Positions 198 through 44,680 of a stretch of 64,000 nucleotides of DNA are shown here, piece by piece; positions within the stretch are counted from its first letter, which is position 1, and every line of letters begins with the position of its first letter. Made by a program: the position numbers and the translations under genes. This DNA comes from Smithella sp. M82 (GTDB lineage: Bacteria; Desulfobacterota; Syntrophia; Syntrophales; Smithellaceae). The notes beneath the pieces are model-generated. The model saw only the letters and a list, made by a program, of their open reading frames with translations. It had not been told where the DNA came from and did no database searches. The stretch lies in assembly GCA_001683985.1 (NCBI GenBank), contig MAEO01000003.1, positions 5,505 to 69,504 of the forward strand, read 5' to 3'.

Positions 198-199
198 TA

Positions 200-2943: not shown

Positions 2944-2951
2944 AATCAAAG

Positions 2952-3967: not shown

Positions 3968-4009
3968 TATCGAACAGTTTTGGGAATAAATAATTATTAT
4001 GAAACCCAC

Positions 4010-4164: not shown

Positions 4165-4229
4165 TGAAATTTGTAAGTCGAACAATCCCGCCCAGCGGAG
4201 GGCATAATACCACGCAGCGAGCTCACGAA

Positions 4230-8414: not shown

Positions 8415-8476
8415 TGATGCACATCCACTTTTTGTTTCTGATAGATAGAACACAAGTTGAAAGAGTGAGTAAATAA

Positions 8477-9304: not shown

Positions 9305-9376
9305 AAAGAACTGATCAATCCAATGTCATCGTGGAAACATTATTTAATTCTTTGACCTAGTATAATTATAATTTGT

Positions 9377-10159: not shown

Positions 10160-10164
10160 TCAAT

Positions 10165-11576: not shown

Positions 11577-11604
11577 TCAAAACATAAAAAAACGGAGGAA
11601 GAAA

Positions 11605-12222: not shown

Positions 12223-12232
12223 TGGAAATCAG

Positions 12233-12973
12233 ATGTTCTCGTTGAAAAATGTAGTAAAAAGTGAATCAACAAATGCAAATGAAAAACAAAAAGGGTGTCT
12301 ATCCTGCGGATCAAAGCAAAATATTGGAAACCGGAAATATTGTTCGATAAAATGCCGTCAGAATCTCCGGCAGAAACTCAATACGAGGAACGGCCTGTTG
12401 CAGGCCTTAAACACCCGTTACGCAGCTTTTTATTTTTCAGAGAAAAAAATTGTTCTGGATATTGTTCCTCACGGAATTAAAGAAGTTTTCCGTTATGAAA
12501 GTAAACGATCAACGGGAAACAATCCGGCTGCGGATTTCAGTATTATGGCCAATGCGTTGGGAGATGCATGGTGGAAGGAATCGAAACGGACAAACAAAAA
12601 TTATCTGGCTTCCCAGCACGTCCTGAAATTGGCAACCCGCCACAGGATTTCTGATGGGTTGCAACGTCCCAGATTGACGAGGACGCCGAGTGTCAAGACA
12701 GGAATTCTGGAATCTCTGGAAATAAAAAAAACTGACCTTTATTCGCATGAATTAAAAAAAATAATAAAAAGCGCTTACAGACACCAGGCAAAAATGCATC
12801 ATCCTGATGCCGGTGGTCAAGCAGCAATTTTTCGTAAGATTCATAATGCTTATAAGGAACTTTTGCGCTGGGCGGATAATCCTGTCTATATCAGGCGCCG
12901 CGGCTTTCCCGATAAATGGTACTATGATGGTGAAAGTAAAAAATGGGTGCAGCCTGCGCCAGGCAGGAAATAG
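12233..12973 (+). CDS. Hypothetical protein with an N-terminal Cys4 zinc-ribbon-like motif and a C-terminal J domain
   Basis: 246-aa ORF with CLSCGSKQNIGNRKYCSIKC near the N-terminus. LKKIIKSAYRHQAKMHHPDAGGQAAIFRKIHNAYKELL carries the HPD tripeptide typical of DnaJ-type J domains. Confidence 0.7.
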   Translation: MFSLKNVVKSESTNANEKQKGCLSCGSKQNIGNRKYCSIKCRQNLRQKLNTRNGLLQALNTRYAAFYFSEKKIVLDIVPHGIKEVFRYESKRSTGNNPAADFSIMANALGDAWWKESKRTNKNYLASQHVLKLATRHRISDGLQRPRLTRTPSVKTGILESLEIKKTDLYSHELKKIIKSAYRHQAKMHHPDAGGQAAIFRKIHNAYKELLRWADNPVYIRRRGFPDKWYYDGESKKWVQPAPGRK

Positions 12974-13004
12974 CTGTTTTAAGCATGAATTTTTCTGGAA
13001 TTTA

Positions 13005-14420: not shown

Positions 14421-14421
14421 A

Positions 14422-17400
14422 TCATTTTACCTCGGATGAATTCATATTATCTGTTGCAGCCGGTTTCTGTTTTTGTTTCCTGCCGAATAGTTTTTCAATC
14501 AAAACATAGAAAAGAGGAACGAAAACAACCACCAGTATCGTAGCAGTGAACATGCCGCCCAGCACACTGGTGCCGATAGCGTTTTGTGCTCCCGCTCCTG
14601 CTCCGGTTGTTATAACAAGAGGCAGAACTCCGAAACCGAAAGCCAGAGATGTCATGACAATCGGACGAAAACGAAGTTTAACCCCCTGCAAAGTTGCATC
14701 TATCAGCGCCATTCCGTTTTCCACACCGGTTTTGGCAAACTGGACGATAAGAATTGCGTTTTTGGTGGTCAGTCCCAGTGTCGTTAAAAGACCGATCTGG
14801 AAATATACGTCATTGGCCAGTCCTCTCATGCTGGAAGCGATAACGCCGCCGATGACACCAAGCGGAAGTATAAGAAGAATGGATATCGGGATTGTCCAAC
14901 TTTCGTAAAGCGCGGCCAGGCAAAGAAAAATAACAAAAATTGAAAAAGCATACAAAAGCGGAGCTTGTGCGCTGGACATCCGTTCCTGATAAGAAAGTCC
15001 GGTCCAGTCGAAGCCAAATCCTTTGGGTAATTTTTCCACAGCTTCTTCCATGGCCGCCATTGCTTCTCCGGAGCTTCTTCCGGGCGCCGGTTCACCCCAG
15101 ATATTGATAGAAGGAAAACCATTGAAACGCGCCAGTTGCGTGGCGCCTGAAGTCCACCGTCCGGTTGCAAATGAAGAGAAGGGAACCATTTTGCCTTGCA
15201 TGTTGCGAACATAAAGTTTTTCCATATCGTCGGGCAACATTCTGTAGGGAGCGTCTGCCTGAATATAAACTCGTTTAATACGAGCTCCCTGTATAAAGTC
15301 GTTGACATAAGCGCTGCCGAAAGAGGCGGAGATTGTTGTGTGAATTGATGAGATTGGCACACCAAGGGCGCCGGCCTTTTCCCAGTCAACGTCGACTCGG
15401 TATTGAGGCACATCCATCATACTGTTGGGACGAACAGACGTAACCCGCGGATCTTTGGCCGCAATACCTAATAACTGGTACTGTCCGTTCACCAACGTTT
15501 GATGACCCAATCCGCCTCTGTCCAACAGCTCGAAGTCAAAACCCTTAGCCATACCCAACTCCGGAACTGCAGGAGGGGGAAAAACGAAGACCATGGCTTC
15601 TCGGATGCCAGAGAAAGCCATCATGGCCCGTCCGGCAATGGCTTTTACCTTGAGGTCAGTCCGGTTTCTCAGCTCCCAGTCCTTCAACTTGATGAACACC
15701 ATGCCGTTATTCTGCGCCCGGCCTGAAAAACCGATACCGGAAATTGTCATGGTTGACGCCACAGCTTCCTTTTCATTTTCTTTGAAATAGAGCTCAATTT
15801 TTTTTAATACTTCTTTAGTCTGTTCCAGTGTGGAACCGGTGGGCGTCATCACCTGAGCTAGAAGTGTTCCCTGATCTTCATCCGGCAGGTAAGCAGTCGG
15901 CATGCGTAGAAAAAGGAATCCCATGATTGCCGAGATTATAAGAAATATAACCAAATAACGTAATTTCCGAGATAAGGAATGACCAACCAGTCCTACACAC
16001 CAATCTCTGATTTTAAAGAATATGCGATCAAACCACAGGAAAAAAGGACGAAGAAAAGCTATAGCGCTTTCTGCCGGTTCATGTCCTGCTTTTACCGGTT
16101 TGAGCAACGAAGCGCAAAGTACGGGAGTCAGGATCAATGCAACAACGACCGAGAGAAGCATTGCGGAGATGATGGTTATAGAAAACTGACGATAAATAAT
16201 ACCGGTAGAACCGGGGAAAAACGCCATAGGACCAAACACTGCTGAGAGCACCAATCCGATGCCGATTAAGGCGCTCGTAATTTGTTCCATGGATTTGGCC
16301 GTAGCTTCTTTCGGAGAAAGTCCTTCTTCGCTCATAATTCGTTCCACGTTTTCTACAACAACAATGGCATCATCAACCAGAAGACCTATGGCTAGCACCA
16401 TGGCAAACATGGTCAGCATGTTGATGGAATAACCCAGAAGCCCCAGTATGGCGAATGTTCCCAGAAGCACTACCGGAACCGCAATAGTGGGGATGAGAGT
16501 AGCTCTGATGTTACCCAGAAAAAGCCACATAATCAGGAAGACCAGCAATATGGCTTCAAAAAGGGTTTTAACGACTTCACTAATCGCCACTCTGATAAAC
16601 GGGGTAGTGTCGTGCGGATAAGTAACTTTTAAACCTGCCGGAAAGAAGCGGCTCATTTCCGCCAATTTCGCTTTGACGGCATCTGCCGTATCCAGCGCAT
16701 TGGCGCCGGCGGCTTGGCGGATCGCAATTCCAGCCGAGGGTTTGCCATTATAGGCGACTTCAATGTCGTAGATTTCAGAACCGAGTTCAGTGCGGGAAAC
16801 ATCGCCGATGCGGACGATTGATCCATCCGGATTGGTGCGCAGGGGAATGTTGGCAAACTCTTCGGGAGTCGAAAGCATGTTCTGGACAATAATGGAAGCA
16901 TTCAATCGCTGTCCTTCAACTGCCGGGGCGCCGCCGAACTGCCCGGCCGAAACTTCAACATTGTATGACTTAAGTGCAGTTATGACATCGTCCACCGTGA
17001 GGAAATAAGCCGTCAATTTATCCGGTTCAAGCCAGATGCGCATGGAATATTCACTGCCAAAAATTTCCACCTCTCCCACGCCGGGCACACGAGCGATTAC
17101 TTGTTCCAGTTTGGATTTTGCAAAATCTCTCAGGTCAGCGCCATCCATGCTGCCGTCTTCTGAAATTATGCCTACAACCATCAGATAATTACGGGTGGAT
17201 TTCTTTACCTCCACACCCTTATTTTTTACAACATCAGGAAGGCTGGGCATGGCGGTTTGAAGCTTGTTTTGCACCTGCGACCAGGCAAAATCAGGATCTG
17301 TTCCCGGGGCAAAAGTAAGCTCGAGACGCGATGTGCCTGCCGAATCACTGACAGAAGACATGTAGATCATATTTTCGAGGCCGGTCATTTTTTGCTCGAT

Positions 17401-17595
17401 AAGTTGAGTTACGCTGTTTTCGACAGTTTCAGCTGAAGCGCCCGGATAGGAGGAAGTAACAGAGATTGATGGCGGAGCCATTAACGGATACTGGGAAATG
17501 GGTAAATTGTAAATGGCAAGCGCTCCCAGCGCCATAAGGGTAACGGCAATAACCCAGGCAAAAACAGGACGTTTTAAGAAAAATTTAGATAACAT
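14422..17595 (-). CDS. RND multidrug efflux transporter, inner-membrane permease (AcrB/MexB family)
   Basis: 1057-aa ORF with the typical AcrB N-terminus (FFLKRPVFAWVIAV), 12-TM architecture and conserved GLLVDDAIVVVENVER. Confidence 0.97.
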   Translation of the reverse strand: MLSKFFLKRPVFAWVIAVTLMALGALAIYNLPISQYPLMAPPSISVTSSYPGASAETVENSVTQLIEQKMTGLENMIYMSSVSDSAGTSRLELTFAPGTDPDFAWSQVQNKLQTAMPSLPDVVKNKGVEVKKSTRNYLMVVGIISEDGSMDGADLRDFAKSKLEQVIARVPGVGEVEIFGSEYSMRIWLEPDKLTAYFLTVDDVITALKSYNVEVSAGQFGGAPAVEGQRLNASIIVQNMLSTPEEFANIPLRTNPDGSIVRIGDVSRTELGSEIYDIEVAYNGKPSAGIAIRQAAGANALDTADAVKAKLAEMSRFFPAGLKVTYPHDTTPFIRVAISEVVKTLFEAILLVFLIMWLFLGNIRATLIPTIAVPVVLLGTFAILGLLGYSINMLTMFAMVLAIGLLVDDAIVVVENVERIMSEEGLSPKEATAKSMEQITSALIGIGLVLSAVFGPMAFFPGSTGIIYRQFSITIISAMLLSVVVALILTPVLCASLLKPVKAGHEPAESAIAFLRPFFLWFDRIFFKIRDWCVGLVGHSLSRKLRYLVIFLIISAIMGFLFLRMPTAYLPDEDQGTLLAQVMTPTGSTLEQTKEVLKKIELYFKENEKEAVASTMTISGIGFSGRAQNNGMVFIKLKDWELRNRTDLKVKAIAGRAMMAFSGIREAMVFVFPPPAVPELGMAKGFDFELLDRGGLGHQTLVNGQYQLLGIAAKDPRVTSVRPNSMMDVPQYRVDVDWEKAGALGVPISSIHTTISASFGSAYVNDFIQGARIKRVYIQADAPYRMLPDDMEKLYVRNMQGKMVPFSSFATGRWTSGATQLARFNGFPSINIWGEPAPGRSSGEAMAAMEEAVEKLPKGFGFDWTGLSYQERMSSAQAPLLYAFSIFVIFLCLAALYESWTIPISILLILPLGVIGGVIASSMRGLANDVYFQIGLLTTLGLTTKNAILIVQFAKTGVENGMALIDATLQGVKLRFRPIVMTSLAFGFGVLPLVITTGAGAGAQNAIGTSVLGGMFTATILVVVFVPLFYVLIEKLFGRKQKQKPAATDNMNSSEVK

Positions 17596-18809
17596 CAGCC
17601 TTCTCCATTAATTCTTTTTCGCGCAGTCGGGACTATATTTTTATTTTCTTTGCCGGTTAAGTCGCCATTTTCATAAGGAACAGCTTTCACAGGTATTCCC
17701 GGTTTTACTTTCAGTATCCCTTCGACAATCACCCGGTCACCCGGTTCCAGCCCTGATGAGACAAGCCATTTGTTGCCGATGGGACGATCAAGGATAAGTT
17801 GTTTCTGCTGAACAATGGAATTCTTGTCTACAATTAATGTGACGGGGTTTCCTTTAGGATCTCGTGACACAGCCTGTTGCGGAGCCAGAATAGCCTTTTT
17901 GTGAACACCTTCCTGTATAATTGCCCGGACAAACATTCCGGGCATCAGGATATCTTTCGGGTTGGGAAATACCATGCGCAAAATAACCGATCCGGTTGTC
18001 GGATCAACTGTTATATCACGAAATTTAAGGTCTCCCTTAAAAGGATATTCACTGCCGTCATCCAGCAGAAGTCTTACCTTTTGTTGATTTTTACCATTTT
18101 GATCCAGCTGTCCTTCCTGTAATTGACGGCGTAAACGAAGAATGTCTGTGGTGGACTGAGTTACATCCACATACATGGGATCCAACTTTTGAATAGTAGC
18201 CAGCGCCACGGGCTGATTGGTAGTTACAAGGGCGCCTTTCGTAATATTGGATCTGCCGATTCGACCGGAAATGGGCGCCGTAATCGTTGTATATTTAAGA
18301 TTAATGCGGGCAGTTTCGACATTTGCTTTCCAGTATTGTATGTCTGCCTGAACCTGTTTTAATGCAGCGGAAGCATCGTCATAGTCCTGTTGACTTACAG
18401 CTTTATCGTTTAATAAATCCTTTAATCTGTTTACTTTTAATTGGATTGCCGGTAGATTGGCTTCGGACCTTGCCAGAGCAGCTTTGGCATTATCCAGCGC
18501 TGCCCGATAGATATCAGGATCAATTTTAAAGAGAGGCTGACCGGCTTTTACATAGCTGCCTTCTGTAAATAAACGATCTTGAATTATACCGCTAACCTGC
18601 GGCCGCACTTCAGCGATTAAATCGGCGGAGGTTCGTCCGGTAAGTTCTGTCGTTGTGACAACAGGTTCTGTCTTTATAGTTATAACGGCTACTTCAGGTA
18701 TTGGCGGAGGACCACCCTGGTTTTTCTTCCCGCAGTTACTTAGGATAAAACACGCAAGGAGAACAATCGTGAGAACCAGCAACAATTTTATTTTATTATT
18801 TTTTTCCAT
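17595..18809 (-). CDS. RND efflux periplasmic adaptor (AcrA/MexA family)
   Basis: 404-aa ORF with a lipoprotein signal (LSNCG), a coiled-coil hairpin and a barrel-sandwich hybrid region. Its stop overlaps the pump start. Confidence 0.93.
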   Translation of the reverse strand: MEKNNKIKLLLVLTIVLLACFILSNCGKKNQGGPPPIPEVAVITIKTEPVVTTTELTGRTSADLIAEVRPQVSGIIQDRLFTEGSYVKAGQPLFKIDPDIYRAALDNAKAALARSEANLPAIQLKVNRLKDLLNDKAVSQQDYDDASAALKQVQADIQYWKANVETARINLKYTTITAPISGRIGRSNITKGALVTTNQPVALATIQKLDPMYVDVTQSTTDILRLRRQLQEGQLDQNGKNQQKVRLLLDDGSEYPFKGDLKFRDITVDPTTGSVILRMVFPNPKDILMPGMFVRAIIQEGVHKKAILAPQQAVSRDPKGNPVTLIVDKNSIVQQKQLILDRPIGNKWLVSSGLEPGDRVIVEGILKVKPGIPVKAVPYENGDLTGKENKNIVPTARKRINGEG

Positions 18810-18904
18810 TTAATACCTCTGCCTGCTTTAATTGTTTTAATGAAATCGTTTTCTGTTCCATATATGTGTAGATTTTTAAATAGGGGAAAACATTTTTTAT
18901 ATTT

Positions 18905-18926
18905 TAAACTTCTTTTTAAAAGTTTA
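18905..18926. promoter_or_regulatory. Inverted repeat TAAACTT-N8-AAGTTTA between the TetR gene and the RND adaptor gene (candidate operator)
   Basis: The 7-bp perfect arms lie at 18905-18911 and 18920-18926. No U-run follows on the transcribed (minus) strand, so an operator is more likely than a terminator. Confidence 0.3.
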
Positions 18927-18927
18927 G

Positions 18928-19548
18928 CTATCGTTTTATTCCGTCCCAACAGGCTTCCGCAGCCTGTTTTATTAAGTTTTCATCCAAGTTTATAAAGCCG
19001 AGAATGTGGTCTCGCATAAGAGATATCAGGGGGCCAAAGGCGATTGAAAATAATGCTGTTTTAGGAAAATCTTTCAAAATCTTCTTGTCAATTCCTTCCA
19101 CAAAGATATCCATCAGGATATCATGTCTGCCCGGTTTTTCCAGGACTCTGTCCCTATGAAGGGAGATACCATATGGAGAGTTGAAATACTGCTCCATGTA
19201 ACGAAAATGAAGAGGGTGTGCTATAAAATACTGCATAAGTTTTCTAATCAAATAAAGAAATCTATCCTTAAGAGGTTGATCGATTTTGTAGCCTTGGTAA
19301 AGATATAAATTTATTTTCTCCTCTAATTCCTGATGCAATTCTGTAATAAGGCAATCCTTGCTCTTGAAATAACGATATATAGTTCCGGCTCCAACACCAG
19401 CCTTTTTTGCAATCATAGACATAGGTACGCCGTGAAAGCCTTTTTCCGCAATAAGCTCTAAGGATGCACGAACAATTTCGTCATGTTTGTCAATATTTTT
19501 TATAAATTGACCTCTGAAAACGGAGTGAACATTCATTCCAGTATGCAT
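18928..19548 (-). CDS. TetR/AcrR family transcriptional regulator
   Basis: 206-aa ORF with a TetR HTH (IVRASLELIAEKGFHGVPMSMIAKKAGVGAGTIYRYFKSKD), upstream of and co-directional with the RND operon. An alternative start lies at 19536 (MNVHS...). Confidence 0.9.
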   Translation of the reverse strand: MHTGMNVHSVFRGQFIKNIDKHDEIVRASLELIAEKGFHGVPMSMIAKKAGVGAGTIYRYFKSKDCLITELHQELEEKINLYLYQGYKIDQPLKDRFLYLIRKLMQYFIAHPLHFRYMEQYFNSPYGISLHRDRVLEKPGRHDILMDIFVEGIDKKILKDFPKTALFSIAFGPLISLMRDHILGFINLDENLIKQAAEACWDGIKR

Positions 19549-19568
19549 TATTAAAAAATTTTTGTCAA

Positions 19569-19592
19569 GAAATTTATAGAAATTTATAGAAA
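19569..19592. repeat. Tandem direct repeat GAAATTTATA x2 plus a partial third unit
   Basis: Seen directly in the sequence. It lies just upstream (minus-strand sense) of a TTGACA box (reverse complement of 19563-19568) ahead of the TetR gene, and it overlaps the mobA stop codon. Confidence 0.5.
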
Positions 19593-20186
19593 GAAAATTT
19601 TTTCTTCTTGTTTTTTTAAATCATCGGGGGTGTTAATATTAAGAAAAAGGCGTCCATCTTTATCGTACGATTTAATTTCTTCTTCTGTAATTTTTAACAA
19701 ACGCATGTCTTTAAATAAACCTGCAATCTTAAGTTTATCCGAAAGAATCATTTTTTTGATGGAAGGAAGACACCGACGTGAATAGATTGCATGTAAGGCT
19801 TGAAATCCTGTAGTGAGTGTAGCAGGAACAACAATATCATACTTGCCTGTCCTTTCAGCCATATAAAGTATAAAATCTTTATTCAGAGAAGGCATATCGC
19901 AGGCGCTGATAAAGGCGTAATCGTTTTTTGAATAGAACAGACCGGTATAAATACCTCCCAACGGGCCTTTGCCTTTGTAAATATCGGTCACAATAATTGT
20001 ATCTGAAAATTCAGTATAAGAAAGAGGATCATTGGCAACAATAATTATTTCAGAAAAAATATTTTTATATATGTCCAATATTTTATCAATTAATCTTTGT
20101 CCGTCAAGTTCAAGAAATGCCTTGTTGACGCCCATGCGGGAATTTTTACCGCCGGATAAAATGATTCCAGTGATTTCTTTTTTCAT
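19584..20186 (-). CDS. mobA: Molybdenum cofactor guanylyltransferase
   Basis: 200-aa ORF with ILSGGKNSRMGVNKAFL and ISACDMP, typical of MobA. Confidence 0.88.
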   Translation of the reverse strand: MKKEITGIILSGGKNSRMGVNKAFLELDGQRLIDKILDIYKNIFSEIIIVANDPLSYTEFSDTIIVTDIYKGKGPLGGIYTGLFYSKNDYAFISACDMPSLNKDFILYMAERTGKYDIVVPATLTTGFQALHAIYSRRCLPSIKKMILSDKLKIAGLFKDMRLLKITEEEIKSYDKDGRLFLNINTPDDLKKQEEKIFFL

Positions 20187-35370: not shown

Positions 35371-35874
35371 TCAAATTTTACTTATTTGAAATCCTTTTAT
35401 TTGTATTGCAACAGATCTGTGTAATAATTCTATGGATACAACAAAAAGCTCTTTTTTAACATTACTTTTAACAACAACACCTTCAATGCCCGCAAAAGGT
35501 CCGTCAATTATCCGGGCTGATTCACCTTCGCGGGGAAATTGAATGGTAAAAATTTCTGTTTTTGAATTTACAAAACGTCGTATGGCATCAATCTCGTTAT
35601 CCGGCACCGGAATTGACACGGTATTTCCTTTTTCCCCTAAAATTTTTACGACACCGGCGGTTTTTAAAATGGAAAGCTTGCTTTCATTATCAAAGTCATT
35701 AAAATAAACGAAAACATAACCGGGAAAAAGAGGAAGAAGAATTTTCCTCCTCCTGTCTTTTTGCTTGCTCCATGATTCTATCTCAGGTAAAAAAGTCTTT
35801 ATATTTTTTTGAATAAGACGCGTATTGACTTTGTATTCGTGACGGCTTCTTGTATGTACGACGTACCAGGGCAT
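35371..35874 (-). CDS. Specialised NusG paralog (RfaH/UpxY/TaA/LoaP-like transcription antiterminator)
   Basis: 167-aa ORF with an NGN domain (MPWYVVHTRSRHEYKV...LPLFPGYVFV) and a KOW motif (IIDGPFAGIEGVVV). It is not in a secE-nusG-rplK context, so it is a paralog rather than housekeeping NusG. Confidence 0.85.
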   Translation of the reverse strand: MPWYVVHTRSRHEYKVNTRLIQKNIKTFLPEIESWSKQKDRRRKILLPLFPGYVFVYFNDFDNESKLSILKTAGVVKILGEKGNTVSIPVPDNEIDAIRRFVNSKTEIFTIQFPREGESARIIDGPFAGIEGVVVKSNVKKELFVVSIELLHRSVAIQIKGFQISKI

Positions 35875-38065: not shown

Positions 38066-38517
38066 TTGAAGGCGTAAAAGTAAAAAAGCTGAAAGTAATT
38101 CCTGATGAACGCGGCCGATTAATGGAAATCATGCGCTCCGATGATGATTTTTTTCAGAAATTTGGACAGGCATATATGACCACCGCCTATCCGGGAGTTG
38201 TCAAAGGCTGGCACTATCATAAAAAGCAGTCTGACAACATGGCGGTAGTCAGAGGAATGATGAAAATAGTCCTTTATGATGGCCGGAAAGATTCGACTAC
38301 CTTTGGCGAGATTAACGAAATATTTGCCGGTTGCCATAATCCTGTTTTAGTTCATATTCCGCCGTTTGTTTATCACGGTTTTAAATGCATTTCCGAAGAA
38401 GAAGCAATAGTTATCAATATACCGACAGAACTTTATAATTACAGTGAACCGGACGAGTATCGTCTGCCTCCACATGGCAGTGAAATAAAATATGATTGGG
38501 GAAGAAAAGACGGATAG
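38062..38517 (+). CDS. dTDP-4-dehydrorhamnose 3,5-epimerase-like cupin (short form, SpsL-like)
   Basis: 151-aa ORF whose start overlaps the upstream stop by 4 nt. It has DERGRLMEI and KGWHYHKKQ, typical of the RmlC-like cupin fold. Confidence 0.8.
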   Translation: MIEGVKVKKLKVIPDERGRLMEIMRSDDDFFQKFGQAYMTTAYPGVVKGWHYHKKQSDNMAVVRGMMKIVLYDGRKDSTTFGEINEIFAGCHNPVLVHIPPFVYHGFKCISEEEAIVINIPTELYNYSEPDEYRLPPHGSEIKYDWGRKDG

Positions 38518-38538
38518 TTTTAATATAGAGATATTCTC

Positions 38539-38565
38539 TTGACTTTGGTTTTAGATTTTTATAAC
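38539..38565 (+). promoter_or_regulatory. Candidate promoter ahead of the riboswitch (TTGACT ... TATAAC)
   Basis: TTGACT lies at 38539-38544 and TATAAC at 38560-38565. The 15-nt spacer is short, so this call is weak. Confidence 0.3.
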
Positions 38566-38577
38566 GTTCCCACGAAG

Positions 38578-38668
38578 CTTGAGAAAGGCAAACCGTACTG
38601 AAAAGACGGGACGCAAAGTTACTGACCTAAGTCTTCATGGCAGGATAGGGTGGCAGAACCGCCGGGCA
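38578..38668 (+). ncRNA. c-di-GMP-I (GEMM-I) class riboswitch candidate
   Basis: The region carries AAAGGCAAACC (38584-38594) and a hairpin at 38593-38609 closed by a GAAA tetraloop (38600-38603). GACGCAAAG follows at 38610-38618, then a CCUAAG...AUGG tetraloop-receptor-like motif (38626-38640) and AGGGUGGCAGAACC. All are colinear with my memory of the Vibrio Vc2 aptamer. It sits in a 230-nt leader upstream of pilD. Confidence 0.8.
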
Positions 38669-38748
38669 ACTTTTAAAGTCGTCCAGCAATACTGCATATA
38701 TCCCCCCACACATAATTATATCTTAAAATTAAGCGGAGAATTGTTCGT

Positions 38749-39510
38749 ATGTTTATGAACGTTGTCGTTTTTGTTTTTGGTGCGGTTATTGGAAGTTTTT
38801 TAAATGTCTGTATATTTCGATTGCCGGCCAAAATGTCGATTGTGAAACCAAGCTCGCAATGTCCCCAATGTCATCATCCTATTCGTTGGTATGACAACAT
38901 TCCCCTGGTAAGTTTCATTTTTTTGCAGGGGGTATGCCGCTATTGCAACAAAGCGATTTCCTGGCGGTATCCATTGGTGGAATTGATAACGGCTGTTCTT
39001 GCACTTTTATTATTCATAAAATTCGGTCTTTCATTAAAATTCCTTGTCTTTTTCATTTTTATTGCAGTTTTAGTTGTTATTACATTCATCGATCTCGATC
39101 ATCAGATTATTCCCGATATTTTAACATTACCAGGCATACCGATATTCTTTGTCGCAGCAGTTTTCCTGGCGGAAGTACACTGGCTGGATGCTTTGCTGGG
39201 TCTATTGATAGGAGGAGGAATTCTTTTCCTGATTGCCGTGGTTTATGAATTAATAACCAAGCGCGAAGGAATGGGTGGAGGTGACATTAAGCTCCTGGCA
39301 ATGATCGGTGGATTTTTGGGATGGAAATCTCTTCTTTTCATCCTCATGGCAAGTTCCTTTCTGGGGGCTGTGGTTGGCATTTCTCTAATGATTACAAAAG
39401 GAAAAGATATGAAGTATGCCGTTCCTTTTGGGCCGTTTCTGTCCCTAGCGGGGGTTGCATATATATTTTTCGGGGATGCATTCATAACGATATTTATCTT
39501 CAGATATTGA
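38749..39510 (+). CDS. pilD: Type IV prepilin peptidase / N-methyltransferase (peptidase A24)
   Basis: 253-aa ORF with the N-terminal Cys motif CPQCHH...CRYC and the two catalytic Asp regions FIDLDHQIIPD and GGGDIKLLA. Confidence 0.93.
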   Translation: MFMNVVVFVFGAVIGSFLNVCIFRLPAKMSIVKPSSQCPQCHHPIRWYDNIPLVSFIFLQGVCRYCNKAISWRYPLVELITAVLALLLFIKFGLSLKFLVFFIFIAVLVVITFIDLDHQIIPDILTLPGIPIFFVAAVFLAEVHWLDALLGLLIGGGILFLIAVVYELITKREGMGGGDIKLLAMIGGFLGWKSLLFILMASSFLGAVVGISLMITKGKDMKYAVPFGPFLSLAGVAYIFFGDAFITIFIFRY

Positions 39511-39518
39511 AATCAAGG

Positions 39519-39563
39519 TGGCATAAAATCCTGCATTGTGCGGGGAAATAACCAATTTTGCCA
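39519..39563 (+). other. Stem-loop in the pilD-fimT intergenic region
   Basis: TGGCATAAAAT (39519-39529) pairs with AATTTTGCCA (39554-39563) over 10 bp with one bulge. It encloses a smaller CCTGC/GCGGG helix. No U-run follows. Confidence 0.35.
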
Positions 39564-39696
39564 TGAAAAATAATCACAGGAGAACAGCAAATAATTCATG
39601 ATTGATATTTACCAATCAAATCCATCCTCATTAGTCTATGGCTGGCATGTACAAGTTTCCTTGTCAGTACAATATTTGCTCTCTTCCACTTAGGAG

Positions 39697-40152
39697 ATGG
39701 AAATGGGCTTCCCTTCAAAAAAAGGCTTTACGCTCGTAGAATTGATGATTGTCATTACCGTCATGGCTTTGCTTTTTGCCATAGGTGCGCCGACATTCCA
39801 GACCTATAGGACCCAAAGCCGGCTAAAAGGAGCCACCCGGCAGGTGGCCTCCGATCTCATGGCAGCAAGAATGCAGGCTATCAAAGAAAACAATAGATTC
39901 AAGGTATCTCTTATAAACAACCATCAGTACACCATATTAGACGACAATAATAATAATGGAGCGGCCGATTCGGGAGAAGCAACGCAAACGAGCGATATCC
40001 AGATTGAGTATTATGACGTAACGATGATTTCCAATAACAGCCCCATATTTCTGCCAAACGGTACGGCTGCAAACATGGCAACGATTACCCTTACCAATCC
40101 AGCGGGCTCACGAAATGTTACAGTGGCCATTACAGGACGAGTAAAGACTTGA
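39697..40152 (+). CDS. Type IV minor pilin / pseudopilin, FimT/GspH-like
   Basis: 151-aa ORF with the class III signal KKGFTLVELMIVITVMALL (G/F cleavage site, E at +5) and a GspH-type region (ATRQVASDLMAARMQAI). Confidence 0.8.
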   Translation: MEMGFPSKKGFTLVELMIVITVMALLFAIGAPTFQTYRTQSRLKGATRQVASDLMAARMQAIKENNRFKVSLINNHQYTILDDNNNNGAADSGEATQTSDIQIEYYDVTMISNNSPIFLPNGTAANMATITLTNPAGSRNVTVAITGRVKT

Positions 40153-40192
40153 ACCCCTAATCATTTTCAATAATTGCATGATGGTGATTAAA

Positions 40193-40558
40193 ATGACGAA
40201 AATTCGCAATCGTGGCTTTACTTTGATCGAGGTGCTTATTGCTATCGCTGTCCTTGCGATTGCGCTTCTGGCTCTTGTGAGCGTAACAGTATCGGTTATT
40301 AATAGCAATATGTTTAGCAGGATGACGACAACTGCAATAACCCTAGCCGCAGATAAAGTGGAAGAGCTGAAGAATATCCCTTATGCTAATTTAACCTCCG
40401 GTGGACCGCAAAATCTTACAGAAGGGAATTACACTTACACAAGAAAATGGCAGGTATTACCGGACACCGGCATGAAAACGATTACCGTAACGGTCACCTG
40501 GCGTTGGCGGGGTCAGTCGCATATTGCTTCCCTTTCAACAATTCTGTCCGAAAGATAA
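40193..40558 (+). CDS. Type IV minor pilin, PilV/GspI-like
   Basis: The start is set to the ATG at 40193 (MTKIRNRGFTLIEVLIAIAVLAI), giving a prepilin signal with E at +5. Confidence 0.8.
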   Translation: MTKIRNRGFTLIEVLIAIAVLAIALLALVSVTVSVINSNMFSRMTTTAITLAADKVEELKNIPYANLTSGGPQNLTEGNYTYTRKWQVLPDTGMKTITVTVTWRWRGQSHIASLSTILSER

Positions 40559-40565
40559 TGGAGTT

Positions 40566-41204
40566 ATGAAAATGCATCCCTTAGATGAGATATGCCACAT
40601 AAAAAAAGAAAAACGGCAGAAACAGACTAATACCTGTGGTTTTACCCTTGTTGAGATACTTATCGCCATGGCTATCGGTTTAATTGTGTTGGCGGCCGTT
40701 TACGGTGTATTCACCTTGCAGAACAAAAAATTAAAAACCCAGGAACAAATTGTGGAAATGCAACAGAGCGCCCGTGTTGCCATGGACATGATGACACGCG
40801 AAATCAGAATGGCGGGATACGATTCTTTGGGAACGTCAAACGCAGGCATCACCAGCGCGACGGCAAATTCCATCAATTTTACCATGGACTTGAATGCCGA
40901 TGGTGATACGACAGATTCAAATGAAAATGTCACTTACTCGCTTTACACTTCGGGTGGTATTCAGAAATTGGGCCGAACAACCGGCGGGGGGGCCGTACAG
41001 CCAGTGGCCGAATACATCAAGGCGCTGACTTTTAATTACTATGATGCAACTGGAGCCGTTACCGCAACATTAGCCAACATTCGTAAAATAAAAATTACGG
41101 TAACTGCCCGTACAGCCCTTCCGGACCCCGAATATACGGCCAACGGCGGTTATCGGACCATCACGCTTACCTCTCAGGTAACACCGAGAAACCTCGCTTA
41201 TTGA
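40566..41204 (+). CDS. Type IV minor pilin, PilW/GspJ-like
   Basis: The start is set to the ATG at 40566 after GGAG. It has the prepilin signal CGFTLVEILIAMAIGLIVL followed by ARVAMDMMTREIRMAGY, typical of PilW. Confidence 0.8.
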   Translation: MKMHPLDEICHIKKEKRQKQTNTCGFTLVEILIAMAIGLIVLAAVYGVFTLQNKKLKTQEQIVEMQQSARVAMDMMTREIRMAGYDSLGTSNAGITSATANSINFTMDLNADGDTTDSNENVTYSLYTSGGIQKLGRTTGGGAVQPVAEYIKALTFNYYDATGAVTATLANIRKIKITVTARTALPDPEYTANGGYRTITLTSQVTPRNLAY

Positions 41205-41215
41205 GGAGACCGTCC

Positions 41216-42424
41216 ATGAGACTCATTAAAAAAGAAAAAGGCATCGTGCTGGTCGTCGTCATGGCGCTTATCGCCACTCTGGTCGCCTTGGGCACAACAG
41301 CGTTCATTATAAGCACCACTGATATAAGAATCAGCGCCAATTACAAGTCAAACAATCAGGCTTTTTATGCGGCGGAAGCAGGCATCGAAGAAGCGAGGGC
41401 CAGAATGAAGGGAGATGCCACCAATCCCATTGTGGACACTCACCCAACGCAATCCGGCTGGGCCGCTTTTATCGGCACCACGGCTGACGCTACGAACAAA
41501 GGTTACAACAGCGGCAATACCATGCACACGCGAGTATCCAGTCTCCAGAGCGCGCTAAACTACACCGTAAAAATCGTACACCAAACAGATGCTTCCGGCA
41601 ATTTGTTATATTGGGGAGATGCAAATGGCGATGGAGTGAATGAAAGAACCACAACCAACACAGGGCTGAATGTTTATCTGGTAACCAGTTACGGCGCCGC
41701 TCCAGGAGGGGCAAACAAGACGATAGCAATCGAAATGGCAAGAACTCCGCCTATCACCGTGCCTTCTCCTCTCTATGTGGAAGCGACCACCACCATTCAG
41801 GGATCGAGCGCCTTTCTCATCGGCATCGATCAATGCGGAAGCTCCCATAAACCGGGACTCGTGACCACACTGGAATCAGGATCGGTCACATTAAACGGCA
41901 ATCCAAGTATCACAGGTGTGGGCGGAGCAGCGCCCAACATCACATATAATGCCACTAATATGGATGTTCAGGCCATGATTGATTCTATAAAAGGTTCCGC
42001 AAATTTTTCGCATAACGTTACCAGTGATACCTTTACTGGAGACCAGGGCTGGGGCGTTCCGACCCCTGGGGAAACATTGCAATATCCCTCCTCATGCAGT
42101 TTGCGCAATGTTGTTTATATCAACACAAACGGAACGGAAGTAAAATTGCACGGTGGAGTGTCCGGATGCGGTATCCTTCTCGTCGAAGGAGATCTACGCA
42201 TTAACGGTGGTTTCAATTGGTACGGCATTATTCTTGTTTCGGGCGCCATCACCTTCACGGGAGGCGGCGATAAGAATATAACCGGCGGGGCGCTGGCGGA
42301 GGCGTCCGCCGATGCCGATCTTGTCGGCGGCAATGCCAACATTGTGTATTGCTCTACAGCCGTCAGTAGCCAAACACAAAACCGGCCATTACAAATCTTA
42401 TCCTGGGCAGATAAAACAATGTGA
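41216..42424 (+). CDS. PilX/GspK-like pilus assembly protein
   Basis: The start is set to the ATG at 41216 after GAGGAG. It has a hydrophobic N-terminus without E at +5 (KGIVLVVVMALIATLV) and the PilX_N-like segment SNNQAFYAAEAGIEEARARM. A large Gly-rich C-terminal region follows. Confidence 0.75.
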   Translation: MRLIKKEKGIVLVVVMALIATLVALGTTAFIISTTDIRISANYKSNNQAFYAAEAGIEEARARMKGDATNPIVDTHPTQSGWAAFIGTTADATNKGYNSGNTMHTRVSSLQSALNYTVKIVHQTDASGNLLYWGDANGDGVNERTTTNTGLNVYLVTSYGAAPGGANKTIAIEMARTPPITVPSPLYVEATTTIQGSSAFLIGIDQCGSSHKPGLVTTLESGSVTLNGNPSITGVGGAAPNITYNATNMDVQAMIDSIKGSANFSHNVTSDTFTGDQGWGVPTPGETLQYPSSCSLRNVVYINTNGTEVKLHGGVSGCGILLVEGDLRINGGFNWYGIILVSGAITFTGGGDKNITGGALAEASADADLVGGNANIVYCSTAVSSQTQNRPLQILSWADKTM

Positions 42425-42696
42425 TGGTGTCACACGCCAGATACAGCTATTTTTTCCACCAATCTTCGGGAAGTTGTCCTTTGTTCATCTCCTTTACCTT
42501 ATCGGTAATATTATAGAGGTTCTTTTTCATTTTTTTAATAAAACAGCATATTTTACTATATACAGTGCAGTCACCTGCAATGCTAAAATTTACGGCTTAA
42601 CGTAAACTGCTAATTTATCACCAATGGGCGTGCGATATTGGAGAGACCTACGATTACAATAATGTGCTCTGTATTTTTATAAATGCTTAAAACTGC

Positions 42697-42725
42697 TTGA
42701 CATAAAGTAATTCTATTTTTATATA
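42697..42725 (+). promoter_or_regulatory. Near-consensus sigma70-type promoter (TTGACA, 17-nt spacer, TATATA)
   Basis: TTGACA lies at 42697-42702 and TATATA at 42720-42725, about 30 nt upstream of the small Cys-rich ORF. Confidence 0.45.
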
Positions 42726-42756
42726 TAAACAAATTTATCAATAAGGATTTCTTTAT

Positions 42757-42930
42757 ATGAGTGAAAGAAAATACTGCGCTATATGCGCATGGAGAGCCAA
42801 TTGCCAAAAAAGATTCAGCGTCTCGACGGATGCCCAGGGATTCGTGCATTGTCCTGATTATTCCCGCGATATGTCCATTAAGGACAATGAGATCGACGAA
42901 GCTTTGAAAAGTGATCAGCAAGCTTCATAA
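42757..42930 (+). CDS. 57-aa four-Cys small protein (not in the ORF track)
   Basis: My own translation is MSERKYCAICAWRANCQKRFSVSTDAQGFVHCPDYSRDMSIKDNEIDEALKSDQQAS, with stop TAA at 42928-42930. It is bracketed by a promoter-like sequence and a strong terminator. AAGGA lies about 8 nt upstream of the ATG. Confidence 0.55.
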   Translation: MSERKYCAICAWRANCQKRFSVSTDAQGFVHCPDYSRDMSIKDNEIDEALKSDQQAS

Positions 42931-42953
42931 TGAGTAACAGTTCAACTTGCAGT

Positions 42954-42996
42954 GACAAGCAGTAAATGATATTTAAAACTGCTTGTCATTTTTTTT
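42954..42996 (+). terminator. Rho-independent terminator or attenuator immediately upstream of argS
   Basis: GACAAGCAGT (42954-42963) pairs perfectly with ACTGCTTGTC (42978-42987) over 10 bp. An A and then eight T residues (42989-42996) follow. The argS ATG is at 43016. Confidence 0.7.
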
Positions 42997-43015
42997 ATAA
43001 AACGTGGGTAAAATT

Positions 43016-44680
43016 ATGAAGAATGTAATTATTAATATGCTGGAAAAAGCTCTAAAAGTTTCGGTTCAAAAAGGGCAGCTTTCTGAATTTTCTCTTCCTT
43101 ATCTGGAACTAGAGCCACCGGCAAATCCCGAACACGGAGATTACGCTGCAAATACAGCGATGATTCTGGCTGCCCAAATCAAACAGAATCCTCGTAAAAT
43201 TGCGCAGATAATTCAGGAAAATATTTCCGATACGGAAAATATTGTTGAAAAAATACAAATAGCGGGTCCCGGCTTTATAAATTTTTTTATTAAAGACGAT
43301 GTCTGGAAGCGGACTTTGAAAAAAATTAACGAGCAGAACGGGAAATATGGAGAAACGGATTATGGCGCCGGTCGAAGAGTTCAGGTGGAATTTGTCAGCG
43401 CCAATCCGACCGGACCTCTGCATATCGGCCATGCCCGCGGAGCTGTTGTCGGCGATGTAATCAGCAATTTGCTGAAAACATCCGGTTATAAAGTTGCCAA
43501 AGAGTATTACATAAATGATGCGGGCAATCAGATGAATAATTTAGGTAAATCCGTCCTGCTTCGTTATAGAGAGCTGCTGGGTGAAAAGATCGACTTTCCG
43601 GAATCATGTTATCGCGGCGAATATATCAAAGATATTGCCGGTAAAATTATTAAAGACGAAGGAGAAAAATATCTTAATACTGATGAATTATCTGCAATAA
43701 ACTATTTTACATCCATAGCAGGGCGGGTAATTCTGGAAGAAATTAAAGCTGATTTGAAAGATTTTGGCGTGGTCTTTGACGAATATTTCAGCGAAAAGGA
43801 ATTATACAAAAACGATGGCGTGACCAAACTTCTGGATAAATTGCAGAAGAAGGGATTTGTTTATTCGGATGGCGAGACATTGTGGTTTAAAACAACTGAT
43901 TTCGGTGACGAAAAAGACAGGGTTGTCGTACGTAAGAACGGCGAACCGACTTATTTTGCCGCTGATATCGCCTATCACCAGAATAAATTTGACCGCGGAT
44001 TCGAAACAGTTATTGATATCTGGGGCGCAGATCATCACGGTTACATGCCGCGTATGCGGGCAGGAATTCAGGCGCTGGGTCATAATAAAGAATCTTTAAA
44101 AATAATTCTTGTTCAACTGGTAAATTTACTGCGGGGCGGGGTTCCGGCGGCAATGTCCACGAGATCCGGTGAATTTGTAACTCTGCGGGAAGTGCTTGAC
44201 GAAGTGGGCAGAGACGCAGCCCGCTATAATTTTCTCATGCGCCGATCCGACAGCCATCTCGATTTCGATCTGGAAGTGGCTAAAAAACAATCCAATGAAA
44301 ATCCCGTCTATTATGTGCAATATGCCCATGCGAGAATTTGCAGCATTTTGAAAATGGCACAGGAGCGAGGCATTGATATGCCGGCATACATAGATACGGA
44401 TCTCTCTCTTTTAAATGAACCGGAAGAAAAATCGTTAATCAAAATGCTGGTGCGTTATCCGGAAACTGTCCATGGAGCCGCAAAATCATTGGAACCTCAC
44501 CGCATTCCGTTTTACTTAAATGAATTAGCCGGAGTTTTCCATAGCTATTATAATAAAAATAAAGTAATTTCAGAAGACAATCGGTTGACTGCGGCAAGAT
44601 TGTTTCTGATAATGATGATCAGAATCGTTTTGGAAAATGCTTTAGATATTTTAGGTGTAAGCGCACCGCAAAAAATGTGA
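43016..44680 (+). CDS. argS: Arginine--tRNA ligase
   Basis: About 554 aa from the ATG at 43016 (the track uses GTG at 43004). Motifs are [15 protein letters not shown] (HIGH), MSTRSG and a C-terminal DALR anticodon-binding region. Confidence 0.96.

Follow-up and report, generated by a model that had tools for sequence, protein, structure and literature searches.

Gene content of the locus

The analysed stretch of DNA, hereinafter the window, is 64 kb long. The locus consists of a 231-nt leader, counted from the upstream stop (38517) to the pilD ATG (38749) and matching the ~230 nt given by the first-pass annotation, followed by five genes:

38749–39510, + strand: pilD, prepilin peptidase/N-methyltransferase, 253 aa (PF06750, A24_N_bact, 1e-36; PF01478, Peptidase_A24, 3e-24)
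39703–40152, + strand: FimU/FimT/GspH-like minor pilin, 149 aa (PF12019, GspH, 3e-15; N_methyl)
40178–40558, + strand: PilV/GspI-like minor pilin, 126 aa (N_methyl)
40572–41204, + strand: PilW/PpdB/GspJ-like minor pilin, 210 aa (N_methyl; PRK10557, PpdB, 1e-10; PF27121, PpdB)
41216–42424, + strand: PilX_N-domain (PilX/GspK-like) protein, 402 aa (PF14341, 7e-8; GspK N-terminus, 4e-5)

The domain matches for all five genes bear out the first-pass annotation, which had placed an aptamer at the head of an operon of pilD plus four minor pilins. The PilD translation shows both aspartate motifs (FIDLDHQ and GGGDIKL) and CxxC...CxxC. The PilV/GspI-like protein is similar to TIGR01707 gspI (4e-10) and TIGR02523 pilV (1e-9), both under their cut-offs. 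The 402-aa protein has neither the canonical GFTLxE motif nor a PDB relative by sequence. The spacing of the genes is tight or overlapping, and the + strand from 38300 to 43100 contains no canonical terminator. An internal promoter could lie in the 186-nt gap that separates pilD from the first pilin gene.

No other pilus gene is present in the window. Specifically, the 40 other open reading frames scanned with Pfam include only housekeeping, efflux and sugar-nucleotide genes, no PilB/T-type Walker A motif was detected, and the only GFTLxE motifs in pilin-like genes of the window are the operon's three. One extra match to the pattern, at 33348 on the − strand, lies inside a TPP-binding POR subunit. 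The earlier claim that major pilin and motor genes are missing from the window is thus upheld by the motif, Walker A and Pfam scans. The first-pass inference of control over maturation and priming instead of the fibre subunit reaches beyond the 64 kb, since a major pilin elsewhere in the genome may be under the same or another c-di-GMP control.

The gene order GspH-like, PilV, PilW, PilX and the roles of these genes are shared with the Pseudomonas aeruginosa fimU-pilVWXY1E and Myxococcus xanthus minor-pilin/PilY1 clusters, in which minor pilins and PilY1 prime pilus assembly (PMC5979040, PMC7541494). PilY1 is common to these clusters and most orthologous loci, but the window cassette lacks both PilY1 and PilE, and its PilX-like protein is 402 aa long. 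The P. aeruginosa and M. xanthus operons, in turn, have protein regulators (FimS-AlgR in P. aeruginosa) and no pilD. Because the orthologous cassettes include PilY1, we consider them type IVa priming sets. It is unlikely that the four pilin-like genes encode type II secretion pseudopilins (GspH-I-J-K) rather than type IV pilus minor pilins. Although GspH, GspI and GspK are among the best NCBIfam similarities, and the window cassette resembles type II secretion systems in having a large K-like protein but no PilY1, these matches are all far under the family cut-offs, and no gspG, D, E or F is nearby. Moreover, the third protein matches PpdB and the fourth matches PilX_N, and most relatives have FimU-PilV-PilW-PilX-PilY1 at the same locus, PilY1 being specific to type IV pili.

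Leader, aptamer and ligand-contact positions

The leader contains the following features:

38539–38567, + strand: predicted sigma-70-type promoter (conserved boxes in aligned leaders)
38577–38667, + strand: c-di-GMP-I (GEMM-I) aptamer including closing helix P1 (RF01051, in-house model R1, covariation)
38577–38581, + strand: P1 5' strand GCUUG, partner 38663–38667 (covariation)
38587, + strand: G at the Vc2 G20 position, specifying c-di-GMP, where A specifies or permits cGAMP (alignment, rule of PMC6140456)
38593–38609, + strand: P2 hairpin with GAAA tetraloop at 38600–38603 (RF01051 alignment, covariation)
38615, + strand: A47-equivalent (AA invariant in 51 of 51 aligned sequences)
38617–38660, + strand: P3 helix with the tetraloop-receptor halves CCUAAG (38626–38631) and GAUAGG (38644–38649) (covariance-model alignment)
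38661–38687, + strand: conserved hairpin competing with P1, the proposed switching element (ligand-free MFE, covariation)
38662, + strand: C92-equivalent, forming a Watson-Crick pair with one ligand guanine (alignment, rule of PMC6140456)
38735–38738, + strand: Shine-Dalgarno sequence GGAG, 10 nt 5' of the pilD ATG (read from sequence)

The promoter −35 element is TTGACT (38539–38544), and the −10 element is either TATAAC (38560–38565, 15-nt spacer) or TAACGT (38562–38567, 17-nt spacer). In 39 aligned leaders, TTGA of the −35 element is invariant, the next C is found in at least 90%, a TATAAT-like box is aligned, and the distance from the −35 element to G20 is 46–49 nt in 35. Transcription is predicted to start at about 38573–38576, which would place P1 within a few nucleotides (~2–4) of the 5' end of the transcript with conserved spacing.

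Scanning the window with cmscan at Rfam gathering thresholds identified RF01051 (c-di-GMP-I/GEMM-I) at 38577–38666 on the + strand, with 64.2 bits (gathering threshold 35, E-value 3e-10) and an alignment that spans the full length of the model (positions 1–87 of 87). The only further Rfam match in the 64 kb is a tRNA. This search had been named beforehand as the test of the GEMM-I claim, which covariation in 50 related loci also substantiates. With model R1, the same aptamer scores 98.5 bits, and no second one is detected in the window. AAAGGCAAACC is located at 38584–38594, GACGCAAAG at 38610–38618, and the P3 3' strand is GGGUGGCAGAACC (38648–38660). Most of the elements listed earlier are where they had been placed, but the 3' half of the receptor had been misplaced by a few bases: the covariance-model alignment assigns it to GAUAGG, while the AUGG at 38637–38640 falls in the P3 terminal loop.

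The fold is conserved in 39 orthologous leaders. P1 (helix 1) is 89.7% paired, with both sides changed in two pairs, and is swapped for (C)AUCG/CGAU(G) in leaders L026, L034 and L037. P2 (helix 3) shows compensatory change in four pairs. Helices 4 and 5 are 96–97% paired, and the 38625/38651 pair is A-U in 14, G-C in 13 and G-U in 10 sequences. Over the whole Rfam-like structure, 95% of cells are paired and 11 pairs are changed on both sides; slid controls are 35–49% paired, and 0 of 500 shuffles are as good. Because the aptamer occupies the same position in 48 related genomes and shows this pairing and compensatory change, it is not a chance match. As judged from these alignments, the window RNA is a genuine, conserved, ordinary member of the GEMM-I class.

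We take G20 of Vc2 to be the base 5' of GC-AAACC, as read from the Vc2 and Gs1761 sequences, and 38615 to be the counterpart of Vc2 A47. In established structures, A47 is the adenine intercalating between the two ligand bases. Of 51 aligned aptamers, 48 have G at the specificity position, and the other three, with A, are the leaders that have the swapped P1. The two columns of the C92 region are GC in 48 of 51 sequences, and L011 has apparently lost this region. According to the published rule, G20 specifies c-di-GMP and A specifies or permits cGAMP; the C92 assignment is from the same work (PMC6140456). By these alignments, the ligand-contact positions of the window (G20, A47 and C92) match the c-di-GMP type and not that of cGAMP, consistent with the class named by the first-pass annotation. 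It is extremely improbable that the aptamer senses 3'3'-cGAMP (GEMM-Ib) instead. The host belongs to the former Deltaproteobacteria, the group in which GEMM-Ib was discovered, and three orthologous leaders have A at the specificity position, but the window has G, as do 48 of 51 orthologues, and wild-type Vc2, which has G20, binds c-di-GMP at picomolar levels but needs ~10 µM for cGAMP (PMC6140456). The window aptamer thus has the three-helix fold, the GAAA tetraloop and receptor, and the G20, A47 and C92 of Vibrio cholerae Vc2 and the RF01051 family. It differs from them in its host (Syntrophales), its downstream genes and its expression platform, a P1-competing hairpin with neither a U-tract nor detectable Shine-Dalgarno sequestration.

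Recurrence among relatives

Of 80 Smithellaceae/Syntrophales genomes, 48 share the promoter-riboswitch-pilD-minor-pilin layout, and the base changes among them are compensatory. Model R1 detects the aptamer in 50 of 80 related loci, with 57–80 bits in an Rfam check on a sample of them; in 48, it is 150–210 nt 5' of the pilD ATG. In the other two (L058 and L080), it follows pilD and directly precedes the minor pilins. Among the 80 loci, pilD loci without minor pilins never carry the aptamer. The constant cargo is thus the priming complex, with pilD included in some lineages only, and the comparative data point more to the minor pilins than to pilD. The pairing of pilD with minor pilins, which had been called unusual, is borne out as a set, but it is less unusual than claimed, as riboswitches of type IV pilus genes are known (PMC9262584, PMC6366702).

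The aptamer is missing from 30 of the 80 loci, L011 has apparently lost the C92 region, and no output mechanism could be demonstrated, as would be expected of an inactive relic in front of an operon that is constitutive or transcribed by read-through from the upstream rmlA/cupin genes. Such a relic is very improbable, because the ligand contacts, tetraloop and receptor, promoter and competing hairpin are kept across ~48 species-level genomes with compensatory changes, which indicates purifying selection.

Competing hairpin and proposed output

The hairpin pairs 38661–38662 with 38686–38687, 38664–38667 with 38681–38684, and 38669–38672 with 38676–38679. It thereby sequesters C92 and the P1 3' strand, and is therefore exclusive of the aptamer P1 fold. 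The MFE fold predicted for the window leader without ligand includes this hairpin. Of 49 distinct leaders, at least 36 form its outer stem (columns 5–8 and their partners), and the hairpin as a whole is 86% paired, compared with 25–48% when slid, with four compensatory pairs. L026 and L037 have changes in both the P1 5' strand and a downstream hairpin arm, in step with their altered P1 3' strand CGAU.

No U-tract follows the hairpin in the window, where the tail is AAUACUGCA, which makes intrinsic termination doubtful; across leaders, the tails average 3.2 U per 9 nt, with ~2.5 expected. The first-pass annotation had correctly found no canonical terminator between the aptamer and pilD. This absence says little in either direction, because the genome region shows no enrichment of canonical terminator-like sites (21 found, 21.7 expected). 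From the hairpin to the start codon, RNAalifold detects no structural conservation. This spacer is rich in A and C but poor in G, and contains a C-rich, G-poor stretch at 38688–38730.

Taken together, we consider it probable (roughly 0.8) that the pilD-fimU-pilV-pilW-pilX mRNA of this Smithella-like syntrophic bacterium (Smithellaceae) carries at its 5' end a working riboswitch of c-di-GMP class I (GEMM-I), with the P1-competing hairpin as effector. Specifically, transcription would begin a few nucleotides 5' of P1 from the conserved promoter. By the family rules, c-di-GMP would be recognized by G38587, A38615 and C38662, and P1 would be locked. Without ligand, the hairpin, which is predicted to be more stable, would capture C38662 and the P1 3' strand. 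The hairpin would most likely terminate transcription weakly and non-canonically or make it pause, or alternatively destabilize the mRNA by keeping its 5' end single-stranded. The operon would then be ON at high c-di-GMP, like the GEMM-Ib switch of Geobacter metallireducens pilM.

The pilM riboswitch is a transcriptional ON switch whose terminator sequesters the C92-equivalent and excludes the aptamer (PMC9262584). Like the window riboswitch, it precedes type IV pilus genes in a member of the former deltaproteobacterial grouping, and its aptamer and C92-sequestering hairpin are mutually exclusive. Unlike the window riboswitch, it senses cGAMP, with A at the specificity position, and relies on a genuine intrinsic terminator; its cargo consists of pilMNOPQ-type machinery, whereas that of the window is pilD and minor pilins.

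A translational OFF switch, in which ligand frees the hairpin 3' arm GUCGUCCAGCA to pair with the pilD ribosome-binding site and block initiation, is improbable. The arm has a UCC core resembling an anti-Shine-Dalgarno sequence, (C/U)UGGA(A/G), which can pair with UCCAG of the arm, occurs just 5' of the ATG in many orthologous leaders, and no terminator is present. However, tests for Shine-Dalgarno sequestration were negative: predicted accessibility over 49 leaders is the same in either aptamer state (0.49 with the arm free, 0.51 with it sequestered), and the duplex energy is no better than with shuffled arms (mean z −0.14, p 0.42). The window site GCGGAG pairs with the arm through three bases only, and the GAAGAGA site of L007-type leaders has no complementarity.

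That the switch bypasses both intrinsic termination and the ribosome-binding site, and works by Rho-dependent termination or mRNA decay, is a more serious possibility, though a tentative one. A ligand-locked P1 may base-pair the 5' end of the transcript and shield it from 5'-end-dependent RNases, in line with the conserved ~2–4 nt between P1 and the predicted 5' end. Alternatively, the two folds may expose or hide the stretch at 38688–38730 to load Rho, in line with the unstructured A/C-rich spacer. Both variants agree with the lack of a canonical terminator and of Shine-Dalgarno sequestration, and with the non-enrichment of canonical terminators in the region. On the other hand, both would depend on the predicted transcription start and on putative rut or RNase sites, the literature surveyed contains no GEMM-I precedent, and the hairpin by itself might still cause RNA polymerase to pause or terminate.

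As to the direction of regulation, analogy with pilM leads us to give ON about even odds and OFF about one chance in four, with the rest left to another output or none. If the riboswitch reading with the hairpin as effector is correct, c-di-GMP would gate the synthesis of a type IV filament's priming (tip) complex and, in this lineage, also of the peptidase that matures all prepilins. Direct action of c-di-GMP on a type IV pilus mRNA leader is also seen in Clostridioides difficile, where the class II riboswitch Cdi-2-4 sits upstream of pilA1 and high c-di-GMP leads to pili (PMC6366702). In contrast to the window riboswitch, Cdi-2-4 has an unrelated class II fold, is terminator-based, and has a cargo that begins with the major pilin.

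A c-di-GMP-I aptamer in the pilD leader

Scanned with Rfam cmscan at gathering thresholds, the whole window returned two matches: a tRNA and a c-di-GMP-I (RF01051) match at 38577-38666 (+), which covers model positions 1-87 of 87 with 64.2 bits (E 3e-10) against a gathering score of 35. The full-model match bears out the first-pass annotation, which had proposed this riboswitch class by eye and named the RF01051 search as its check. The aptamer elements that it described are all in place:

Aptamer elements in the pilD leader (window coordinates, strand, element, basis)
38584-94, +, AAAGGCAAACC element; sequence
38593-38609, +, P2 hairpin with a GAAA loop at 38600-03; sequence and RF01051 alignment
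38610-18, +, GACGCAAAG element; sequence
38626-31, +, CCUAAG, 5' half of the tetraloop receptor; aligned to the RF01051 consensus CUAAg
38644-49, +, GAUAGG, 3' half of the receptor; aligned to the RF01051 consensus uAuGac
ends at 38660, +, P3 3' strand; sequence

One assignment has to be corrected. The 'AUGG' taken for the other receptor half (38637-40) is the P3 loop, and the covariance-model alignment places the receptor 3' half at 38644-49.

Related loci were collected by a PilD scan with one genome per species. All 80 loci (numbered with the prefix L) are from Smithella, Smithellaceae, Syntrophaceae or Syntrophales metagenome-assembled genomes (MAGs), with PilD identity of 57-77%; the closest species-level genomes are Smithella MAGs, at no more than 77%. 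A covariance model built from 39 orthologous leaders finds exactly one aptamer in the window and an aptamer in 50 of the 80 loci, and it recovered 12 loci missed by our first aptamer regular expression. A sample of these matches is confirmed by Rfam at 57-80 bits, and in the 30 loci without a match a scan at gathering thresholds detects none of the Rfam families.

The aptamer structure is conserved among these leaders. Specifically, P2 carries a GNRA-type tetraloop and P3 the matching receptor, in helices that are 95-97% paired with compensatory changes. The closing helix P1 pairs GCUUG (38577-81) with CGGGC (38663-67) and is 89.7% paired over 37 distinct sequences; in three loci (L026, L034 and L037) it is swapped whole for AUCG/CGAU-type pairs. 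With P1 included, the Rfam-like structure reaches 95% pairing over the 39 leaders, and 11 of its pairs are changed on both sides. None of 500 shuffles reaches this result, and slid controls are 35-49% paired. The structure was supplied by hand for this covariation test, because RNAalifold wrongly paired GGC with GCC in place of the Rfam 2-bp helix. Outside the aptamer, RNAalifold found no conserved structure in the whole-leader alignment. By eye, CCAGCAAUCCUGC could also form a long-range helix with the 3' strand of P3, an option dropped because changes in one relative (L003) break it. The minimum free energy (MFE) fold of the window leader is not more stable than those of shuffles (z -0.28), a measure that is uninformative for a riboswitch.

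The RNA has every RF01051 feature that can be tested computationally and lacks the one feature that defines GEMM-Ib. The riboswitch belongs to the c-di-GMP-I class; it is not a new class of element, and any Rfam-based annotation can find it.

Predicted ligand-contacting bases and natural variants

We take G20 (Vibrio cholerae Vc2 numbering) to be the base directly 5' of GC in GCAAACC, from the Vc2 and Gs1761 sequences and the Rfam structure line; its equivalent in Gs1761 is A14. The window bases equivalent to G20, A47 and C92 are G38587, A38615 and C38662. Of the two guanines of c-di-GMP, one is read by G20 through its Hoogsteen face and the second forms a pair with C92; cGAMP riboswitches have A at position 20 (PMC6140456). 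Among 51 aligned aptamers, position 20 is G in 48 and A in three, the A47 site reads AA in all 51, and the C92 site reads GC in 48. The A that marks GEMM-Ib is absent from the window, which has G, and occurs only in L026, L034 and L037. The window aptamer is therefore predicted to be c-di-GMP-selective.

The three aptamers with the G20-to-A change (GAGCAAACC; L026:5835-5937, L034:1429-1530 and L037:1618-1719, coordinates within each locus) are orthologous pilD-leader aptamers. They score 69-72 bits with RF01051, and their P1 is of the altered (C)AUCG/CGAU(G) type. If the GEMM-Ib rule applies, their ligand may be cGAMP, or they may respond to both dinucleotides. Two further leaders (L041:5837-5916 and L067:5849-5929), at the same position before pilD and with a shortened P3, match the c-di-GMP-I-GGC family RF03167 at 63-64 bits (gathering score 59), better than they match RF01051; L044:417-504 is identical to L041. 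Our searches turned up hardly any publications on it. A single orthologous locus thus has G20, A20 or GGC-variant aptamers, depending on the species, and would offer a natural series for studying a change of ligand with the genes kept. In L011:23-116, the GCC with the C92 equivalent is lost (GGACTG-TAGGTA) and the match still reaches 58.7 bits; this aptamer may be a decaying copy or an assembly error.

A competitor hairpin and the possible output of the switch

In the 39-leader alignment, TTGA is invariant, the next base is C in at least 90%, and a TATAAT-like box lies ~17 nt further on; the spacing from the -35 element to G20 is 46-49 nt in 35 of the 39. With this promoter geometry, P1 should start ~2-4 nt from the predicted 5' end of the transcript.

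Directly 3' of the aptamer, a conserved hairpin at 38661-38687 has the form (U/C)GC-C-GGGC, inner stem-loop, GUCC-A-GC(A). It takes up the C92 equivalent and the entire P1 3' strand, and is therefore incompatible with the ligand-bound fold. The ligand-free MFE of the window leader contains the hairpin, and at least 36 of 49 distinct leaders form its outer stem in their MFE. In an alignment of leaders, its seven outer pairs are 86% paired versus 25-48% in slid controls; four of them have changed at both bases, and none of 500 shuffles gives as high a covariation score. In L026 and L037, where the P1 3' strand is CGAU(G), the P1 5' strand has changed to (C)AUCG and an arm of a downstream hairpin to AUCG or UCG, in step. 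L034 has the same changed P1, but its MFE contains no such hairpin.

The hairpin does not look like a classical terminator. Its tail in the window, AAUACUGCA, has no U-tract, and across the leaders the 9 nt after the hairpin contain on average 3.2 U versus ~2.5 expected, with 5-7 U in 12 leaders (L002, L017, L027, L035, L037 and L043 among them). A pattern scan of the + strand from 38300 to 43100 finds no canonical terminator, in agreement with the first-pass annotation, which had noted none between the aptamer and pilD. In window positions 1-20000, canonical terminator-like sites are no commoner than in shuffled sequence (21 versus 21.7 expected), so their absence here says little, and classical intrinsic termination may be rare at the ends of genes in this genome.

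Sequestration of the Shine-Dalgarno sequence as the general mechanism was not supported by accessibility and duplex tests. The partition-function accessibility of the region from -14 to -5 is 0.51 with the P1 3' strand available and 0.49 with it removed, and RNAduplex pairing of the freed hairpin arm or the 5' strand with the ribosome-binding site is not significant against shuffles (mean z -0.14 and -0.15, respectively). No conserved element on which the freed arm could act was found downstream of the hairpin. The hairpin itself is therefore the likeliest effector.

The pilM riboswitch of Geobacter metallireducens is an ON switch in which a terminator sequesters the C92 equivalent and cannot coexist with the aptamer (PMC9262584). 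The present RNA is alike in that a downstream hairpin sequesters the C92 equivalent and is mutually exclusive with the aptamer. By this analogy we favour a ligand-ON switch, with a probability of about one half, and regard a ligand-OFF switch as a lesser possibility. If the ligand turns expression on, the hairpin would pause the polymerase or terminate transcription weakly; another possibility is that the mRNA without ligand would have a single-stranded 5' end and be unstable, or would be open to Rho. It is unlikely, in our view, that the pilD-leader riboswitches of Smithellaceae represent an undescribed GEMM-I output mechanism through 5'-end-dependent mRNA decay or Rho. There, the ligand would choose between P1, in which the extreme 5' end of the mRNA is paired, and a competitor hairpin that would neither terminate transcription nor sequester the Shine-Dalgarno sequence.

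The minor-pilin cassette as partner of the riboswitch

In the window, the aptamer heads a prepilin peptidase gene and four pilin-like genes:

Genes downstream of the aptamer (window coordinates, product, basis)
38749-39510, PilD, prepilin peptidase; A24_N_bact (PF06750) 1e-36, 125 bits, and Peptidase_A24 (PF01478) 3e-24, 86 bits
39703-40152, GspH/FimU-like pilin; domain matches and gene call
40178-40558, PilV/GspI-like pilin; domain matches and gene call
40572-41204, PilW/PpdB-like pilin; domain matches and gene call
41216-42424, PilX_N protein, 402 aa; domain matches and gene call

By sequence, PilD is a peptidase of family A24A, with CPQC...CRYC and both Asp motifs (FIDLDHQ and GGGDIKL). The first three pilin-like genes encode class III signal peptides (GFTLVE, GFTLIE and GFTLVE) with PF07963 matches; the fourth product is a PilX_N protein without E5, as is usual for GspK/PilX-type proteins. 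NCBIfam matches of the cassette members all fall below curated cut-offs, with type IV pilus and type II secretion models scoring alike. The PilX-like protein has no PDB relative by sequence, and the gene catalogue contains its 402-aa version with an ATG start, not the 407-aa version with a TTG start. The last four genes are 12-25 nt apart, and 186-192 nt separate pilD from the first pilin gene, depending on the ATG chosen. The identical operon is present in JGI metagenomes 3300019140, 3300018425, 3300018489 and 3300018490 and in SRA-derived assemblies.

The earlier statement that the 64 kb hold no major pilin or motor genes is correct. Other than in the three pilin-like genes, the G-F-T-L-x-E pattern occurs once, at 33348 (-), within the gene for the TPP-binding subunit of pyruvate:ferredoxin oxidoreductase; the window has no Walker A motif of the PilB/T type, and Pfam scans of 40 other open reading frames (ORFs) gave unrelated functions only. 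The other genes include valS, mutL, miaA, nadC, birA, coaX, coaE, ribD, argS, ffh, rimM, trmD, rnhB, thrS, pheST and dtd, an AcrAB-TolC-type pump, subunits of pyruvate:ferredoxin oxidoreductase and sugar-nucleotide enzymes.

Gene order is conserved among the relatives: ribD (minus), often rmlA and a cupin gene, pilD, minor pilins, a small ORF rich in Cys, argS and a SPOR gene. In 48 loci, the pilD ATG comes 150-210 nt after the aptamer. In L058 and L080, the cupin gene is followed directly by pilD, and the aptamer comes after pilD, in a long spacer before the first minor pilin. Where pilD has no pilins and leads directly to the small ORF and argS, there is no aptamer (L051, L052, L055, L061, L078 and probably L072), and prepilin genes are present in all loci that have the aptamer and whose sequence extends far enough downstream. 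The minor-pilin cassette, therefore, is the constant partner of the riboswitch, and the placement of pilD behind it is characteristic of the Smithella lineage, which includes the window.

The aptamers in the pilD/minor-pilin gap (L058:1644-1739 and L080:1651-1746) are from two higher-GC Syntrophales MAGs. Each is followed by a GC-rich leader of ~190-270 nt, where the 3' strand of P1 could find a pairing partner in GCCCGGG plus a run rich in U. In two loci that have no riboswitch, L074 (4743-5965) and L075 (equivalent region), genes are inserted between the cupin gene and pilD. Judged by eye from translation, one insert encodes a Crp/FNR-like regulator and the other a ~90-aa Fis-like HTH protein; they may be a protein-based alternative to the RNA switch.

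Two types of cassette, with and without PilY1, occupy this site. That of L010 is a canonical type IVa priming set, with FimU/GspH (165 aa), PilV (138), PilW (272), PilX (159) and PilY1 (1031 aa; PF05567, 1.5e-18). The window has the second type, common also to L007, L011, L012, L029, L050, L056 and L073, with the 402-aa PilX_N protein and no PilY1; none was found between 42424 and argS. Identity among relatives is 60-90% for flanking genes and 24-58% for pilin genes, and the pilW-pilX part of the window cassette (40600-42400) has a GC content of 47-51%, versus 35-42% in its flanks; the GC content of the window as a whole is 40.7%. The divergent GC content, the low pilin identity and the two cassette types suggest that cassettes have been replaced or have diversified rapidly.

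Control of type IV pilus genes by cyclic-dinucleotide riboswitches is known from Geobacter pilM (PMC9262584) and Clostridioides difficile pilA1 (PMC6366702). In our literature searches, no c-di-GMP-I riboswitch was described upstream of pilD or minor-pilin genes, nor any from Smithella or Syntrophus; the cargo is somewhat unusual for a known riboswitch class. The proposal of the first-pass annotation that a second messenger controls the priming complex is plausible; a major pilin gene elsewhere in the genome may be under c-di-GMP control too. The arrangement would tie c-di-GMP directly, at the RNA level, to the priming of type IV filament assembly and, in the lineage of the window, also to the maturation of prepilins. 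Its hosts, syntrophic degraders of alkanes and fatty acids, live in aggregates and are hard to study genetically. In metatranscriptomes of methanogenic consortia, the leader would offer a sequence-defined handle for reading piliation that depends on c-di-GMP. The comparative series, with the aptamer before pilD, after it or absent and with G20, A20 and GGC variants, is a compact data set for riboswitch evolution and for this type of expression platform.

Two small proteins were noted near the operon. A 57-aa Cys-rich ORF (CAICAWRANCQ...HCPDY; 42757-42930, +) separates the pilin cassette from argS; it matches nothing in Pfam or NCBIfam and is 58-84% identical in many relatives, pilin-less ones included. 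A 167-aa protein (35371-35874, -), which adjoins ribD near the sugar-nucleotide genes and is conserved in relatives, has a NusG N-terminal domain as its sole domain match and may be a specialised NusG paralogue.
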